Part shown: piece by piece, positions 4,087 to 41,953 of the stretch | Layout of the letters: each line of letters opens with the position of its first letter | Position numbering within the stretch: position 1 is the stretch's first letter | Source: Escherichia phage AV106 | Sequence record: OR352937.1 | Direction: 5' to 3' (one strand) | Length of the DNA stretch: 50,922 bases | Notes under the pieces: model-generated | The model's input: the letters and a program-made list of their open reading frames with translations, nothing else | Told to the model about the DNA's origin: nothing | Databases searched by the model: none | Program-made: the position numbers and the translations under genes

Positions 4087-6189
4087 ATGGCTTTATATAG
4101 ACGCGGTACAGCATCAATGGATGCAGACGGCACGGTTCGCGGAACCGATACGAAATGGAAAGATCAGCTTGCTTTGATTCGAGTCGGTGCAACTATCGTA
4201 TTCCTAGAGCAACCAATTAAGCTGGCGGTAATCAGCGATATTGTGAGCGACACAGAGTTAAAGGCTATCTCTACGGATGGTCAGACTGCCGCTGACGGTA
4301 AGTATGTAATCTTGCTTAACGATTCATTGACCGTTAACGGGCTTGCTCAAAACGTTGCTGAGACTCTTAGATACTATCAAAGCAAAGAGACTGAGATCGC
4401 TGGGGCAATGGATATCATTGCGAGCCTGGATATGGATAACCTTAACCGTATCGTTGAGGAAATTAAGGCGAACAAATCAGCCGCAGAAGCTGCGCAGAAT
4501 CAAGCGGAGCTTGCTCGCGACGCATCTGCTGCAAACCGTGATGCCGCAAGCCAATTTGCAACATCGGCAGAGCAAAGCAAGGATGCAGCAAAGACCAGTG
4601 AAACGAACGCCAACAGCGCTAAGACCGCCGCCGAAACAGCTAAATCTCAGGCCGTAACCGCTAAAGACCAGGCCAAAGGCTTTCGGGACGAGGCTGAAGG
4701 CTTTGCGAACAGCGCGGACGCCTCGAAAAAAGTGCCGTATGCGGGCGTCACTGTCAGCGCGCCGACTGGCATGGCGGATATGCTTAAGCGGTTACGCGAT
4801 TCTGTTAAAGGCGGTTTTTGGCGCGTTGAGGATATTTCGCAGTTCCCATCTGGCGAAACGACCCCCTTCAAATACGGCTCGGGAGTGTGTGGGGGCGCTG
4901 GGGATACATTCTTTGCCGTCAACGTTGATTGGCGGACTTCTCGCGTTAAAGTTTTCTCAGGAAACAATAACGCGATTAACGGCACGTCAGGCAACGTGAG
5001 CGCTATTGAACTGGCGAAGCTGGGTGCTAACGGTGATGTCGCGATCGGAGACGGCGGGACAGGTGCATCGACAGACTATGGAGCGCGCGCAAACCTTCAG
5101 GTCATGCTAGAAAAACAAGCATCATTGACTACGGAAGATCTTAACAGCCTGAAAGGTGATAAGTCTGGATTTTATTATACTGCCGCGAGCGTCAACGCAA
5201 CGCCGGAGCGTAATTATCCCGTTCAGGACGCAGGTTGTCTACTTGTTCAGCGCACTGGCACTAACGATCCTAGAAGCTGCATACAAACGTACACCTCACA
5301 CAGTACCGGTCGAAAATGGATTCGCTGGCTTAGCAATGGAGCAACCGAAGCATGGTCCAAATGGTACGAGATTTATAACTCGGGGTCGTCGCCGACTTTT
5401 TCCGGAGTGGTCACTGGCTCTGCGGTAACAGCTAAGGGCGACAATGCCGAAGCTAGTGTCCGTGTTATTGCCGATACAGGCGGTAAATATAGTGCTCGTA
5501 TTTCTGTAACGAATAACGCTACAAAGAGAAGTGCTAATTTAGACCTCTCTGATGACGGTACGCTAAGCACCCCCCATATAAATTCCGTCGGGGGTATAGA
5601 CAGCCAGGGCGGGATGCTTTTGCACAAAGTGCCGTACCCGGCAATAGGCTTTCGCCCAAACCGGTATACCTCACCAGACACACAACTTGGTGCATTTACT
5701 AAGTTTGAGGTTTCGGGGCAAGATGGGGAGGTGGCGTATGTATCTCTGTCGCGGCATTACGGTACAGGTGCGGCAGAAGGGGCAATGTATGTTATGTTCC
5801 CCAACACAGGCGGCACGTTGGCTTTGCAGGGGACTTCAGGTATTAATTACAAGAAAAACATTGTTGACGCCAAAGTCAACGAGGCTCTCGATAGAATAAC
5901 GGGACAGCGATTGGTAAACTTTGTATATAAAGACGATGAACAGGAGCGCGTTCGCTTCGGTATTATCGCCGAAGAAGCGGAATTAATAGCGCCGCAGTAC
6001 ATCAAGCACCATCAGACACCTTACGAGGATATTATTGACGAAGATGGAAACAAAATCGGAGAGAAAACACGGGATAGACCATCCGTCGATGTAAACCCAA
6101 TCGTCATGGATTTGATGGGGTGCGTTCAATATCTAAATAAGCAGGTGGAGGAATTGAAAGCTGCCTTAGCGGCACTGAATAAAGCATAA
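4087..6189 (+). CDS. Tail fibre protein with C-terminal intramolecular chaperone (peptidase S74-like) domain
   Basis: 700 aa; RBS AAGGAG; Ala/Gln-rich coiled-coil shaft; C-terminal RVRFGIIAEEAELIAPQYI...LNKQVEELKAALAALNKA resembles the self-cleaving chaperone domain of tail spikes; strong terminator follows. Confidence 0.65.
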   Translation: MALYRRGTASMDADGTVRGTDTKWKDQLALIRVGATIVFLEQPIKLAVISDIVSDTELKAISTDGQTAADGKYVILLNDSLTVNGLAQNVAETLRYYQSKETEIAGAMDIIASLDMDNLNRIVEEIKANKSAAEAAQNQAELARDASAANRDAASQFATSAEQSKDAAKTSETNANSAKTAAETAKSQAVTAKDQAKGFRDEAEGFANSADASKKVPYAGVTVSAPTGMADMLKRLRDSVKGGFWRVEDISQFPSGETTPFKYGSGVCGGAGDTFFAVNVDWRTSRVKVFSGNNNAINGTSGNVSAIELAKLGANGDVAIGDGGTGASTDYGARANLQVMLEKQASLTTEDLNSLKGDKSGFYYTAASVNATPERNYPVQDAGCLLVQRTGTNDPRSCIQTYTSHSTGRKWIRWLSNGATEAWSKWYEIYNSGSSPTFSGVVTGSAVTAKGDNAEASVRVIADTGGKYSARISVTNNATKRSANLDLSDDGTLSTPHINSVGGIDSQGGMLLHKVPYPAIGFRPNRYTSPDTQLGAFTKFEVSGQDGEVAYVSLSRHYGTGAAEGAMYVMFPNTGGTLALQGTSGINYKKNIVDAKVNEALDRITGQRLVNFVYKDDEQERVRFGIIAEEAELIAPQYIKHHQTPYEDIIDEDGNKIGEKTRDRPSVDVNPIVMDLMGCVQYLNKQVEELKAALAALNKA

Positions 6190-6193
6190 CGAG

Positions 6194-6222
6194 AAGGGGC
6201 CGTGCGGCCCCCTTTTTTTTAG
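6194..6222 (+). terminator. Intrinsic terminator after the tail fibre gene
   Basis: GGGGCCG-tgc-GGCCCC followed by TTTTTTTT. Confidence 0.7.
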
Positions 6223-6494
6223 TTTGAGTTTTCCCAGTCCATTTTGCGCCGCGCTAGCGGGCTTTCGTATGACAACAAGCTGTTATCTCATATGAGGATT
6301 ACGCTGAGCTTCAAGGTCCGACACCTGACGGTAAGGAACTTATTGGTAAGCAACGATTCTTCCAGGTTGACTACGCGGCTGTGGCAGCTTACGCAGTGCA
6401 GGTGTGTAAAGAGCAGGAGGAAGAGATTATTTCCTCAAGGAATGACGTTGATGAATTGAAATTGATTGTAAAATCGTTGCTTGATAGCAAGTAA

Positions 6495-6526
6495 AATAAA
6501 TCCCCGCAATGCGGGGATTTTTGTTA
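6495..6526. terminator. Bidirectional terminator (SSB end and convergent fibre unit)
   Basis: AAATCCCCGC-aat-GCGGGGATTT with T-runs on both strands. Confidence 0.6.
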
Positions 6527-6937
6527 GAACGGGATATCATCATCAAAAGTTGATTGAGGATTTGGATGTGGCTGTGATTGCGTTCGTTGTTGTTGCTGAG
6601 GTGTTCGTTGTTGATTGCTTTGTCCTCGTTGGCTGAACACCAATTTCGGGAAATCAGCTGGCTGCAATGAGTTGTAAACCGTTCCGTTGTGCTCACGGGA
6701 TGAGATCTTCAACGTTTCGCAAGATACTGAAATTACTCGACCAACCTGAAACGCCTCACGATACCAGTCATCAAGACCAGGCTTTCCACCATCGCTAAAA
6801 AAGAATGTGTAGTTAGTGTATTCACGATCGCCATCACGCGGTTTGTAGCTTTCTGCCAGCTCAATGATGTAAGTATTGCCTCCGTTACGCTCAAGAATCT
6901 TCGGTTCTTTACGGATCTCGCCAGTGATAATATGCAT
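6524..6937 (-). CDS. ssb: Single-stranded DNA-binding protein
   Basis: 137 aa; C-terminus ends in the acidic tip DDDIPF preceded by a Gln/Pro-rich linker, as in bacterial SSB tails; RBS AGGAGAGAAA. Confidence 0.7.
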   Translation of the reverse strand: MHIITGEIRKEPKILERNGGNTYIIELAESYKPRDGDREYTNYTFFFSDGGKPGLDDWYREAFQVGRVISVSCETLKISSREHNGTVYNSLQPADFPKLVFSQRGQSNQQRTPQQQQRTQSQPHPNPQSTFDDDIPF

Positions 6938-6983
6938 AATTTTCTCTCCTAAAATTTATGGGCGACCTAAGCCGCCCTGATGA

Positions 6984-7631
6984 TTATTCGAAGTTTGTGA
7001 TTGATTGAGATTGTACAGGCTTCGCGCTTGTTGCTTCAACCTGTTTTTTCTGTTCTGGTTGTGCAGGTCGAATGCCGCGAGCTTTACCGATCTCAAACTT
7101 AGCCTTTAATGCGTTGTAGTGATCCTGAATGATTGACTTGCTCGCCGTGTCCGTCTGGCGGTAAGCGTTAGCCCATACCTCTTTCAGTGATTCGATATCT
7201 TCACACGCATCAAGTTCTTTTTTCCAGTCCTTGACAGATTTCACTGCAAGCTGAGCATCGTCATCACTCTGGCTAATCCCCAGCGCTGCGGCTAATGAGT
7301 AACGTCGAGCATACGTCATTGCGGAACCTACGCCTTGCGGATCGCGTTTTGCAATCGGCATCATCATGAAGAATTTGGCCCACTGCCCAGATTTATGAAT
7401 CAACATCGTCTCAAGATGGAAGGTCGTTTCCGTGCTTGTATCAAGCATTGATTGCAGGATCATAATATCGTTGTCGGTTAGCGCCGGACTAACTGCTGCC
7501 ATCATCGCATCAAGAGTTGCGTATGAATTCTTCAGGTGATTGTTTTTTGCGTCCTTCTTTGCTTTAGCAAATTTGTTGCGAGCATTGAACAGTGCGGGAA
7601 GGATTTCGTTTGTTTCTGGTGATAATTGCAT
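6984..7631 (-). CDS. erf: ERF-family single-strand annealing protein
   Basis: Start moved to the ATG behind CCAATCAGGAGA; MTYARRYSLAAALGISQSDDDAQ matches the conserved ERF core (P22 Erf SSYARKYCLNGLFGIDDAKD). Confidence 0.75.
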   Translation of the reverse strand: MQLSPETNEILPALFNARNKFAKAKKDAKNNHLKNSYATLDAMMAAVSPALTDNDIMILQSMLDTSTETTFHLETMLIHKSGQWAKFFMMMPIAKRDPQGVGSAMTYARRYSLAAALGISQSDDDAQLAVKSVKDWKKELDACEDIESLKEVWANAYRQTDTASKSIIQDHYNALKAKFEIGKARGIRPAQPEQKKQVEATSAKPVQSQSITNFE

Positions 7632-7705
7632 CTTAACTTCTCCTGATTGGTGTATGAGGTGCATTATAACACCTCATTAATTATTTGTTTAGCTATTTGT
7701 GCCGT

Positions 7706-8770
7706 TTACTTATTTTGATAGCGCACCCATGACGGAGTTTCAAGTTCAATCTCGCTTGCGTCGCCAGCGTATCCAGGCCAAACATCCATTTCAGAGCAAG
7801 CCTTGTAAGTGTGGACTACGCTAATGTACTGGTTACGACCGATCCTGATTTGCTCCATTGTCATACGGTAAGCCAGTGCGATATAAGGCTCTTTTTTCTC
7901 CTGCGCAAGCAATCGAACTACGATCGGAATATCTTCCGGGAAGTTTCCTTCAAAAGCGCCAGCCTGGATTGCGCGACGTAGCAGGTCATGCTGCAATGCC
8001 ATCTTCAGGTAATAGCCGTGATTGTATGCCAGTCTCGGGAACTCTAACGGGTTGGCGCTCATCGTAGTTTTGAAGTCTGTGATAATTAGTGCTTCCGGTA
8101 AAATTACGTCTTCGAATACCGGATCACCATTTTCATCATAACCAGTCAGCACACGACCTGGCACGTTCTCTTTGTAGTCAAGGTGATCGAGTCGAACCTT
8201 AACCTTGACTCCGGATATTTCACCGAAGATTGAGATTTCACGCTGAGCTGTTTCGCTGTTAATGCACGCTTCATGATCGGGATTCTGCTCAAGGATGGCT
8301 CTCATCTTCATGCAAGCATCGTATTTGTCAGCGTCAACCAATTTCTTTCCTTCAGCGCGCGCCTCTGCTTCTGCGATCAGTTCGATCAGATACTGAACGT
8401 TGAGTTCTTCACCGCAATCAATCATCATTTTGATGAGGTCCGGGTATTGCTTTCCGGATGTACCTTTCAGACCAAACGATTTTAATTTTGCAGCCAGTGC
8501 AGTTTGTGACGTAATCAGATCCTTGAACTCTTCCGGAGCCGGACAACGAGCATACGTTGCAGTAAACAGATCACGACTCTCAAAGTTAGTATGCGACTGA
8601 GTGCCAAACTCAAGCGCTTTCGTTGTCTCGTTCTTCTTGAATCGCCAGTTAGCCGGACAAGTCTGATAGATTTCTGCAAGACTCGATCCGCTTACATACT
8701 CTGCCGCCCAACCTTCGTTGCTGTGATACTCGTCATTGGAAAGCTGGCTTGACGTGAATACTTGGAACAT
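7706..8770 (-). CDS. Recombination-associated exonuclease (PD-(D/E)xK family candidate)
   Basis: 354 aa; first gene of the exo-erf-ssb operon; RLDHLDYKEN...ITDFKTT looks like a D...D/ExK motif; RBS AAGGAGA; driven by a sigma70-like promoter. Confidence 0.5.
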   Translation of the reverse strand: MFQVFTSSQLSNDEYHSNEGWAAEYVSGSSLAEIYQTCPANWRFKKNETTKALEFGTQSHTNFESRDLFTATYARCPAPEEFKDLITSQTALAAKLKSFGLKGTSGKQYPDLIKMMIDCGEELNVQYLIELIAEAEARAEGKKLVDADKYDACMKMRAILEQNPDHEACINSETAQREISIFGEISGVKVKVRLDHLDYKENVPGRVLTGYDENGDPVFEDVILPEALIITDFKTTMSANPLEFPRLAYNHGYYLKMALQHDLLRRAIQAGAFEGNFPEDIPIVVRLLAQEKKEPYIALAYRMTMEQIRIGRNQYISVVHTYKACSEMDVWPGYAGDASEIELETPSWVRYQNK

Positions 8771-8801
8771 TGCGTTTATCTCCTTCGTTTACGATGAATC
8801 C

Positions 8802-8829
8802 ATTATAGCCATTAACAGCGTTTAGTCAA
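8802..8829 (-). promoter_or_regulatory. Sigma70-like promoter for the exo-erf-ssb operon
   Basis: Minus strand TTGACT, 16-bp spacer, TATAAT, about 25 nt upstream of the RBS AAGGAGA. Confidence 0.55.
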
Positions 8830-9106
8830 TCGGATACATGTAATTTGTGTGTAATTGCGTGTCTATATCGCTCAAGTTACAACCAGCATTAATAGAATCA
8901 ATTGCTTAAGTCTATTTTTATGCGCTGTCTATCGCGTAACACTTGTAACAGCTTTTTCTTAGAAATACAGAGATACCTACAAATAGAATCAAGATTGATT
9001 AAATTTTGAACATATGTGATAGAAATTTGACGAATCAATCAAATCACCTGTTACACGGTAGACAACTGTTACACAACAATAATTATATATATAAAGCTAA
9101 AATTAA

Positions 9107-9185
9107 ATATTATCTATCTATATATATTATATAGAGTTTTTATCATATCTCTCTGCGGTCGGATGGGGTGGATTTTGTAACACCC
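9107..9185. repeat. AT-rich control module, copy A
   Basis: ATATTATCTATCT, then 52 bp of TA-rich sequence, then ATTTTGTAACACCC; a second copy with identical spacing lies at 40349..40427. Confidence 0.6.
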
Positions 9186-9238
9186 GTTCCGGTTACAAAA
9201 ATAGACACCTGTTACACGAAAAAATTGTAATCGTGCTA

Positions 9239-9267
9239 TTGCAATAAAAGTAAATGCGACATACAAT
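9239..9267 (+). promoter_or_regulatory. Sigma70-like promoter for the Cor-like lipoprotein gene
   Basis: TTGCAA, 17-bp spacer, TACAAT, then RBS GAGGA and ATG at 9297. Confidence 0.55.
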
Positions 9268-9296
9268 GCAATCACACTAACGACGAGGACATACAA

Positions 9297-9527
9297 ATGA
9301 AAAAGTTAATCACCATTATTGCCGCCGCATTCATCCTGACTGGTTGTGCTCAGAATCTTAAGAATGGAGACTGCGTTGCTTACGCTTACGGATCTTGCAT
9401 GATGCGATTCGTTGATGGCAATAAGATTCCGTCTGGCGAGATTGACATGCGATTCAAAGGTCTTTCATCAGACGACAACCAGGGCAACTTTAGCGGTAAG
9501 GTGTCAGTTAAAACTAAGGAGTGGTAA
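9297..9527 (+). CDS. Small outer-membrane lipoprotein, Cor/Llp-like superinfection exclusion candidate
   Basis: 76 aa; lipobox LTGC after a hydrophobic signal peptide; own consensus-like sigma70 promoter; sits beside the tail-tip genes as cor does in FhuA-dependent phages. Confidence 0.5.
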   Translation: MKKLITIIAAAFILTGCAQNLKNGDCVAYAYGSCMMRFVDGNKIPSGEIDMRFKGLSSDDNQGNFSGKVSVKTKEW

Positions 9528-40141: not shown

Positions 40142-40348
40142 ATGTCTATAGCTGCATTTTTTATTTTTGTAACCAGTGCAACCGATGCAACCGACTTTTT
40201 CTATAAAAGTAAGCACATCTATTTATGCGCGCGGAATAGTATGTTTTTTATACTATGCATCACGAAATATATGCCACCATCAAAAAATGCGGTTGCACCT
40301 ATTACGCCGATTACATACCAATATATAATATAATAAATAAATAAATAT

Positions 40349-40427
40349 ATATTATCTATCTTATTATTATATATAGATATTTTATTATATATAGGCCCAT
40401 CGACTCGCTGGCCATTTTGTAACACCC
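40349..40427. repeat. AT-rich control module, copy B
   Basis: Same two anchor sequences (13 bp and 14 bp identical) with the same 52-bp spacing as copy A. Confidence 0.6.
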
Positions 40428-41909: not shown

Positions 41910-41953
41910 ATAGCACGAATTGCTAAACGCCCCGAGGGGAATCGGGGTATAGT
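41908..41953 (+). promoter_or_regulatory. Dyad-motif promoter
   Basis: AATAGCACGAATTGCTAAACG, 22 bp, TATAGT in the loop of CCCCGA...TCGGGG, then leader CATCAACCAATCAGGAGA. Confidence 0.55.

Follow-up and report, generated by a model that had tools for sequence, protein, structure and literature searches.

In this study, we analyzed the recombination gene cluster of Escherichia phage AV106 (sequence record OR352937.1) and the element that precedes the second gene of this cluster. The window, that is, the whole stretch of 50,922 nucleotides (nt) that was analyzed, carries the genes for a putative exonuclease (exo), an ERF-family annealing protein (erf), and a divergent protein resembling single-stranded DNA-binding proteins (SSBs; ssb). 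We conclude from the sequence that the element before erf is a promoter of the direct repeat (DR) type with the geometry of a class II marbox promoter, and not a plain sigma-70 promoter. Taken as a whole, the cluster is very probably a recombination operon orthologous to that of phage T1, which would be transcribed from a first promoter (P1) and from this DR-type promoter with the help of a marbox-binding activator of the host. By its sequence, the source genome is a Tunavirus (Drexlerviridae), a T1-like lytic coliphage. The features of the operon, in the order of transcription, are as follows.

8802 to 8829, minus strand: P1, predicted sigma-70-type promoter TTGACT-16-TATAAT, upstream of exo.
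7706 to 8770, minus strand: exo, predicted RecE-family PD-(D/E)XK 5'-3' exonuclease of 354 amino acids, corresponding to T1 ORF29 "exodeoxyribonuclease VIII".
7687 to 7707, minus strand: DR box, the direct repeat of T1 and TLS, which matches the marbox consensus and has its 15-nt core at 7702-7688.
7654 to 7677, minus strand: hairpin ATGAGGTG-N8-CACCTCAT, with the -10 hexamer TATAAT (7668-7663) in its loop of 8 nt.
6984 to 7631, minus strand: erf, predicted ERF-family single-strand annealing protein of 215 amino acids counted from Met12 of a long open reading frame (ORF) that reaches to 7664.
6960 to 6977, minus strand: GC-rich hairpin in the gap between erf and ssb, a candidate leaky terminator or mRNA 3' stabilizer.
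6524 to 6937, minus strand: ssb, divergent SSB-like protein of 137 amino acids with a predicted oligonucleotide-binding (OB) fold, a Q/P-rich linker and the end FDDDIPF.
6498 to 6520, minus strand: predicted intrinsic terminator with a 10-bp stem and a T-run, which closes the operon.

The DR is a 21-nt repeat with the consensus aaATAGCACnnnTTGnTAAAA, found in phage TLS and also in T1 and Rtp, that points with transcription and lies about 76 nt before start codons (PMC11447400). The erf copy, AAACGGCACAAATAGCTAAAC at 7707-7687 on the minus strand, is slightly deviant, begins precisely 76 nt upstream of the erf start codon at 7631, and sits at the same place as DR9 of TLS. Its box, AAATAGCTAAAC, is kept in all the Drexlerviridae copies and stands 18 nt before TATAAT. 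The pattern GCACN5GCWAAA occurs at 36 sites in the window against 7.9 expected. Martin et al. (1999) reportedly gave the marbox consensus as AYnGCACnnWnnRYYAAAY. When at most one mismatch to this consensus was allowed, 19 sites were found in the window against 1.02 expected, and the erf copy has no mismatch at all. A position weight matrix of the marbox was built only from 87 Salmonella sites bound by MarA, SoxS, Rob, or RamA in chromatin immunoprecipitation sequencing (ChIP-seq; Table 1 of PMC10268841). With this matrix, the window had 25 sites of 14 bits or more, where 0.54 were expected, and 10 sites of 16 bits or more, where 0.02 were expected. The erf DR box scored 16.4 bits, and the median of the actual ChIP sites was 11.2 bits.

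The spacing of the DR also agreed with that of host promoters. Seventeen DR copies are followed by a -10 hexamer with five or six of six matching positions, all of them in the forward orientation, and the distance from the core to the -10 hexamer is 20 nt in 14 of the 17 and 19 nt at erf. A conserved CAT is located 7 nt past the -10 hexamer. The unit reads (A)ATAGCAC-N5-G(C/T)TAAA(A), 20 nt, the -10 hexamer, 7 nt, CAT, a Shine-Dalgarno sequence, and ATG. In micF of E. coli, the core lies 20 nt before TAGAAT, which is followed by 7 nt to the annotated 5' end of the RNA, and the core centre is thereby placed at -41. It is documented that class II marboxes are forward boxes that overlap the -35 position, with a peak near -41 (PMC10268841, PMC12052159). 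The copies in the window are listed below by box start and strand.

Promoter-like copies from the scan of the window: 2507-, 7688-, 33979-, 34499-, 36134-, 36860-, 37421-, 38475-, 39212-.
Further promoter-like copies from the same scan: 41449+, 41913+, 43265+, 44280+, 47908-, 49896-, 50528-.
Copy found by the pattern only: 32684-.
Copies that consist of the box only: 20132+, 23897+, 30853-, 40478+.

The DR units cluster in the early and replication regions and not in the block of structural genes. TTGCTA or TTGTTA within the DR box was considered as a -35 hexamer and was rejected, as it lies 22 bp from the -10 hexamer. A homologue of MarA, SoxS, or Rob encoded by the phage was not found (the best E value of a tblastn search of the window was 2.5, and the helix-turn-helix (HTH) candidates contained no Pfam HTH_18 domain). 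A link between the marbox and T1-like phages was not found in the literature either, most subscription journals, including the 2004 paper on the T1 genome, being outside the search. From these sequences we draw the well-founded inference, which is not a demonstration, that a host activator (MarA, SoxS, or Rob) is used at the DR. A wider proposal is more tentative, and we hold it with somewhat less than even confidence: in T1-like phages, about 17-20 class II promoters may account for most of the early and middle transcription, that of erf-ssb included; the DRs would be optimized marboxes, and MarA, SoxS, or Rob, most plausibly the constitutive Rob, would be borrowed from the host.

A dyad-like element with TATAAT in a hairpin loop had been placed at 7665-7705 in the initial annotation, which was made from the sequence alone. 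The dyad is real, but it was slightly displaced, as the hairpin occupies 7654-7677 and the conserved box 7707-7687. The loop hexamer is preceded by TGT, and the predicted start point is near 7655. A consensus scan assigned this hexamer to a second site resembling a promoter at 7691..7663, which reads TAAACA-17-TATAAT and includes a TG upstream. The RNA of the hairpin has a minimum free energy (MFE) of -17.2 kcal/mol (z = -3.1). Its position is kept across the Drexlerviridae while the sequences of the arms differ, and the loop always contains a -10-like hexamer. The arm pairs of the relatives include CGGGGTG/CACCCCG, GGTTGGTG/CACCAACC, CGTGGTG/CACCACG, GATGCGTG/CACGCATC, and ATGGAGGT/GCCTCCAT. 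Covariation was analyzed in 19 distinct sequences whose stems reached 6 bp or more; two genuine copies in which the hairpin is visible by eye were left out. Paired cells amounted to 88%, shuffling lowered this share to 73% and sliding the register to 38-60%, and two-sided changes were found in five of the eight stem pairs. In the stem, G.T pairs (17) were more frequent than A.C (4), which suggests that the sense strand acts as RNA or as single-stranded DNA.

Hairpins with a -10-like loop and a stem of at least 6 bp are not enriched in the genome in general (17 versus 17.4 in shuffles). When the inverted repeats bracketing the -10 hexamer were anchored on the DR, the mean stem in the window was 4.8 bp and 41% of the stems had at least 6 bp, compared with 3.45 bp and 9.6% in a control of cross-paired arms, and none of 2000 permutations reached the observed value. 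The distant phage Sazh behaved similarly, with a mean stem of 5.3 bp and 53% of at least 6 bp at 19 sites versus 3.5 bp and 9.6% in the control (0 of 2000 permutations). About half of the DR promoters carry a bracketing repeat of at least 6 bp, for example those at 33979-, 34499-, 36134-, 37421-, 38475-, and 44280+, and in the copies at 41913+, 47908-, and 49896- the hairpin is inside the spacer instead. Two terminator readings of 7654-7677 were rejected: on the sense strand the sequence continues with ACACCAAUCAGG and has no U-tract, and for the opposite strand the T-rich run is not conserved in the relatives. As a transcript starting 7 nt past the -10 hexamer loses the 5' arm, the hairpin would matter only in the read-through RNA from P1 or in DNA. 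With low confidence, we suggest that it is an intercistronic RNA stabilizer or processing signal for which, along with the promoter, the small gap between the genes has to suffice; instead of such an RNA role, it may form a DNA structure that responds to supercoiling.

The other promoter, P1, corresponds to the TTGACT-N16-TATAAT sequence from which transcription by unmodified host polymerase had been proposed. The sequence is present at 8829..8802 on the minus strand, 32 nt upstream of the ATG of exo, and with 11 of 12 consensus positions it is the sole match of this quality in the 50.9 kb. Its hexamers are kept as TTGACTAAA-N13-TAnAnT in T1, IME347, tonnikala, SECphi27, and Klebsiella phage K50, and the flanks diverge. 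P1 is therefore credible because of its position before exo and the conservation of the hexamers across subfamilies, and not because of its match score, and we regard it as the predicted sigma-70-type promoter that drives exo. The proposal of transcription by the unmodified host polymerase immediately on entry would fit this first promoter only and is probably incomplete for erf-ssb. Sigma-70 matches of at least 10/12 are not enriched in the window (15 observed versus 19 expected), and in TLS only three sigma-70 consensus promoters were stated (PMC11447400). At the other end of the operon, the terminator at 6520..6498 has an MFE of -16.1 (z = -4.6) and is annotated in both T1 and SA12KD. The hairpin between erf and ssb at 6977..6960 has an MFE of -14.4 (z = -2.8); its stem is kept with differing sequences in the relatives, and its T-tract varies. 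An Rfam scan of 6300-9300 gave only sub-threshold terminator-like noise.

The exo-erf-ssb module itself is ordinary; it is already known and annotated, because the same genes stand in the T1 record as ORF29 exodeoxyribonuclease VIII, ORF28 recombinase, and ORF27 single-stranded DNA-binding protein, together with the same promoter and terminators. The record of SA12KD has annotations of P1, the internal promoter, the hairpin between erf and ssb as a terminator, and the terminator at the end of the operon. The 2.8-kb region shows 95% DNA identity to Escherichia phage vB_EcoS_ULIM2 and 92% to phage T1, and it was matched by 81 phage records. A search for relatives with the single Erf protein gave near-identical phages only, and diverse loci were gathered by tblastn on a phage collection and by a DNA pattern scan. 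The pattern scan gave 107 matches, which were mostly chance matches lacking the hairpin. The gene order of exo, a small ORF in some phages, erf, and ssb is kept in Tunavirinae, Tempevirinae, Braunvirinae, and one Skatevirus. The additional ORF, of 85-96 amino acids, lies between exo and erf in Warwickvirus, Tlsvirus, and one Klebsiella phage and is absent from Tunavirus including this genome; in the phages that have it, the DR box and the hairpin adjoin the stop codon of exo and not erf. In the re-annotation of TLS, the unit "P51-gp51-DR9-gp52-T52" was described as the only clear transcription module of that phage (PMC11447400).

These data agree well with the initial annotation, in which three co-directional genes had been read as a phage recombination module. 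The three ORFs are indeed co-directional, on the minus strand, which had not been stated, and the module is supported by the nuclease motifs, by the match of the exonuclease to RecE in profile and fold, and by the presence of Erf and an SSB-like OB protein in conserved synteny. The module had also been called self-contained. That was overstated, as T1-type genomes encode a resolvase and an SbcD-like nuclease elsewhere.

The exo protein is 98% identical to ExoVIII of T1. It matched Pfam PF12684 DUF3799 (PD-(D/E)XK-like) with 58.9 bits against a cut-off of 26 (E = 8e-16) and PHROG 412 "exonuclease VIII" (E = 6e-102). Single-sequence searches of the PDB sequences gave no match for exo (phmmer) and none for the SSB-like protein, and for this reason a profile and predicted folds were required for both proteins. 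The profile search for the exonuclease family found RecE (3h4r, E = 2.5e-5), in which ITDyK was aligned with IMDVK and GTQSH with GTAFH. The AlphaFold2 monomer model had a predicted local distance difference test (pLDDT) score of 91, and its top Foldseek match was again RecE 3h4r (E = 5.5e-8, template modelling (TM) score normalized by the target 0.66). The nuclease motifs, on whose presence the exonuclease assignment had been made to depend, were found, as none of H60, D195, and D232-x-K234 varies among 21 homologues with identities as low as 49%. The NCBIfam RecE equivalog model gave 33 bits against a cut-off of 1269, and thus the protein is not a full-length RecE. These sequence and model data indicate that exo is a RecE-type PD-(D/E)XK nuclease, for which a toroidal oligomer and processive 5'-3' activity on double-stranded DNA would be expected from the family. 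Between the catalytic residues D195 and D232 there is a beta-hairpin insertion of about 25 residues (about 198-225).

The assignment of the second gene to the ERF family was likewise confirmed, with 84.2 bits to Pfam PF04404 ERF against a cut-off of 25 (E = 1.2e-23), a match to PHROG 155 (E = 8e-49), and a match to Gp77 of SECphi27 (PDB 9y6u) with E = 1.2e-71 over residues 12-226. Single-stranded DNA (ssDNA) annealing and ring assembly by this Erf would follow from its family membership. From its first ATG, the long ORF 7664..6984 encodes 226 amino acids. The best start is the codon at 7631, Met12 of the long ORF, which gives the predicted protein of 215 amino acids, because AGGAG lies 7 nt upstream of 7631, the upstream ATG meets a stop in IME347, the short form is annotated in several GenBank records, and the alignment with Gp77 starts at Met12, the N-terminus of Gp77. 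The first codons of the long ORF, which are overlapped by the hairpin, are probably untranslated. Gp77 is reported to assemble as a 24-mer ring, to be indispensable to SECphi27, to adjoin a putative SSB, and to trigger the defence nuclease RAZR (PMC13017515).

The call of the third gene stands in part. Its tip, which had been described as an unambiguous SSB tip, is present and conserved: DDDIPF is nearly invariant in 29 homologues, with D132, I135, P136, and F137 invariant, and a BLASTP alignment with E. coli SSB was confined to the 22 C-terminal residues, with an identical FDDDIPF. The SSB call is less certain, as the sequence matches cover the tail only and the OB fold is only predicted. The protein matched PHROG 44 (E = 9e-20), had no Pfam match, including SSB PF00436, and reached 19.9 bits with TIGR00621 of NCBIfam against a cut-off of 53.95, in the tail only; a Pfam domain was found in 0 of 120 homologues among the matches listed. 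In the AlphaFold2 model, residues 1-103 form an OB fold with a pLDDT of about 90, and the Q/P-rich residues 105-132 are disordered with a pLDDT below 50. Among the 50 PDB matches listed by Foldseek, nearly all were SSBs (4dam, 8uzt, 1qvc, 1eyg, and others), with a best E value of 1.6e-4 and TM scores of 0.45-0.6. We therefore regard the 137-amino-acid protein as a divergent relative of SSBs in fold, ending in a tip of the host type, that falls outside the SSB sequence family but would work like an SSB. Some homologues (P0166, P0197, P0218, P0235), one cluster of which comprises 178 sequences, extend beyond DDDIPF with ASVGLQYGKHRIYAL. An internal DDDIPF should not bind the partners of SSB, so that the extension is either a genuine variant or an artefact, be it of read-through or of the assembly.

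Other explanations were considered for three of these elements. The DR box and its about 20 sister sites could be bound by a regulator of the phage instead of MarA, SoxS, or Rob. In that case, they would be sites for enhancement or activation, or a "stoperator" against read-through, and their likeness to the marbox would be convergent or incidental. We consider this unlikely, though it is the most serious of the alternatives. The authors of the TLS re-annotation themselves suggested a stoperator, an enhancer site, or an UP element (PMC11447400), genomes of the T1 type contain genes for a C2-like regulator and for two more HTH proteins, and the DR copies (ATAGCAC...TTGnTAAAA) vary far less than the marboxes of the host do, which would suit a dedicated factor. 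However, no AraC/MarA-type protein was detected in the window, a stoperator needs no fixed distance from a -10 hexamer, and a match at all the specified marbox positions, in orientation, and in the exact spacing of micF is hard to explain by accident. It is less probable still that the dyad has no promoter function before erf and acts purely as an RNA element of the P1 transcript, either as a 3' stabilizer of the exo mRNA or weak terminator, or as a processing or protein-binding hairpin of the erf leader, with TATAAT conserved as a loop sequence. The compensatory changes and the G.T bias on the sense strand, the z-score of the fold, the similar hairpins at about half of the DR sites, and the loss of the 5' arm from a transcript that begins after the -10 hexamer all agree with an RNA element. 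On the other hand, the stem is not followed by the U-tract of an intrinsic terminator, the loop hexamer with TG two bases upstream, a fixed distance to the box, and CAT 7 nt downstream constitute a promoter grammar that is repeated at 17 sites, and sigma-70 promoters are otherwise lacking. The RNA and promoter roles do not exclude each other. The most improbable of the three alternatives concerns ssb, whose product might be no working SSB and instead an adaptor or decoy using FDDDIPF to recruit or titrate SSB-interacting proteins of the host for Erf and Exo. The lack of an SSB-family sequence match outside the last ~20 residues, the restriction of the family to T1-like contigs of ~50 kb, and the pattern of conservation, which is strongest in the tip and at a few aromatic positions, are in line with such a function. 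Against it, the predicted barrel retrieved almost exclusively bona fide SSBs, the invariant aromatic residues Y40, Y43, F45-47, W58, Y59, F63, and Y88 suit stacking on ssDNA, and an OB fold followed by a disordered linker and an acidic tip is the layout of an SSB.

We prefer the T1-orthologous operon with P1 and a host-activated DR-type promoter, and several points weigh against this explanation. All functions were assigned by homology and all promoters by sequence. The 11/12 match of P1, taken alone, is not above chance (1 observed versus 1.24 expected in shuffles of the whole window) and is not significant. At erf, the spacing of the DR is 19 nt and not 20 nt, and this copy, with the -35-like TAAACA (4/6) at 17 bp and an extended -10, might fire without an activator. 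In cells without stress, most of the Rob protein is sequestered (PMC12052159), and the three HTH proteins of the phage could bind the DR as alternatives. The covariation counts of the hairpin are inflated by the relatedness of the sequences and by the exclusion of rows with stems shorter than 6 bp. Finally, apart from its tail, the SSB-like protein is not recognized by the SSB models of Pfam and NCBIfam, its structure model has a predicted TM score of 0.63, and its fold matches are modest.

In the operon that we propose, P1, a conserved promoter of the sigma-70 type, would drive exo, and the second promoter of the DR type, 76 nt before erf, would combine a near-consensus marbox near -40, an extended -10 element, and the conserved CAT start, with the covarying hairpin bracketing its -10 hexamer. 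Most likely, erf-ssb and about 16 other early or middle units would be boosted by a marbox-binding activator of the host, for which Rob is a constitutive candidate, and the hairpin would most likely act in the read-through RNA from P1 as a stabilizer or processing signal between the cistrons. The GC hairpin with its weak T-tract would separate erf from ssb, and the strong terminator would end the exo-erf-ssb unit. As expected from its family, the RecE-type exonuclease would resect DNA ends in the 5'-3' direction, Erf, which is a large ring in the solved homologue, would anneal the exposed complementary 3' strands, and the OB-fold SSB would coat single strands, while its FDDDIPF tip could dock the partners of the host SSB. 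In a terminally redundant genome packaged by the headful mechanism, single-strand annealing would circularize or concatenate genomes for replication and packaging. Ritchie et al. (1980) and Pugh and Ritchie (1984) are said to have described T1 genes for general recombination and concatemer formation that can be replaced by the RecE pathway of the host.

The reading of the DR as a marbox is a new and testable interpretation of a known repeat. If the DR boxes are working marboxes, the repeat of T1 and TLS that was left open in the literature gains an explanation, and the scarcity of sigma-70 consensus promoters in T1-like phages is explained as well. If this is true, host activators replace a sigma factor, polymerase, or activator of the phage's own, the development of the phage is tied to the antibiotic and oxidative-stress regulon of the host, and a coliphage family that is very common, and notorious for contaminating laboratories, should need the mar/sox/rob regulon for infection or be influenced by it. 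The covarying hairpin at the -10 hexamer of about half of the DR promoters would then be a second layer. The module itself adds little beyond one more Exo/Erf/SSB set for recombineering and an Erf that is a relative of the ring that triggers RAZR.

The sequences next to the operon also showed some features. The plus strand at 6273-6494, a stretch flanked by the tail-fibre ORF (4087-6189) and the terminator of ssb, contains a dead 3' remnant of a tail-fibre gene, which translates to ...VDYAAVAAYAVQVCKEQEEEIISSRNDVDELKLIVKSLLDSK* with stop codons upstream and is homologous to the C-terminus of the SA12KD fibre. The live fibre ORF differs from T1 in its C-terminal half and has its own terminator at 6196-6211. 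From the sequence, the remnant looks like a scar of a receptor-binding cassette swap. Very AT-rich, non-coding stretches of short repeats of the TATATA/ATAGATA type were found at ~40300-40400 and ~9060-9140, and one such AT-rich stretch lies in the 470-bp gap between P1 and a divergent lipoprotein (cor-like) gene at 9297. An origin, a pac site, and bent DNA are candidate roles for these stretches.

Compared with ORF29, ORF28, and ORF27 of T1 (AY216660) and with the TLS unit, the operon has the same genes, order, strands, promoter, internal DR box, and terminators, and its identity to T1 is 92% in DNA and 87-99% in protein. It differs in that the linker of ssb is a few residues shorter and the neighbouring tail-fibre gene has a swapped C-terminus, and TLS and Warwickvirus have the additional small ORF between the DR box and erf. 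The pairing of a 5'-3' PD-(D/E)XK exonuclease with an annealase forming rings or filaments resembles RecE/RecT of the Rac prophage and lambda Red (Exo/Beta). The catalytic residues of exo align with H51, D158, and K160 of the RecE chain, which we take to be H652, D759, and K761 of RecE. In contrast to these systems, the annealase here belongs to the ERF family and not to RecT/Redbeta, a dedicated SSB is encoded in the operon, and no Gam was seen. Unlike RecE, exo lacks the long N-terminal region, and its beta-hairpin insertion is absent from RecE and from the shorter homologues (P0061, P0068, P0107-P0120), in which the Asp residues are about 10-20 residues apart.

The fold of Erf is shared with P22 Erf and with SECphi27 Gp77 (PDB 9y6u/9y9c; Nature 2026, PMC13017515), to which it is 52% identical over the full 215 amino acids, with the same N-terminus and the same SSB-like neighbour gene. 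At the positions that contact RAZR, it has N19, K20, A22, and N31 (Met12 numbering), whereas Gp77 has S19, L20, V22, and S31. It was documented that L20R and V22R in Gp77 abolish RAZR activation and that S19R and S31R are escape mutants (PMC13017515), and judging from these residues the T1-type Erf may not be sensed by RAZR. With the class II promoters of MarA, SoxS, and Rob, such as micF, the DR-type promoters share a forward box over the -35 position, 20 nt to the -10 hexamer (19 nt at erf), a predicted start likewise 7 nt past this hexamer, and the absence of a consensus -35 element. They differ from the class II promoters of the host in that about 17 are packed in a phage genome of 51 kb with unusually uniform and high-scoring boxes, and about half of them carry the inverted repeat bracketing the -10 hexamer, which micF does not have.

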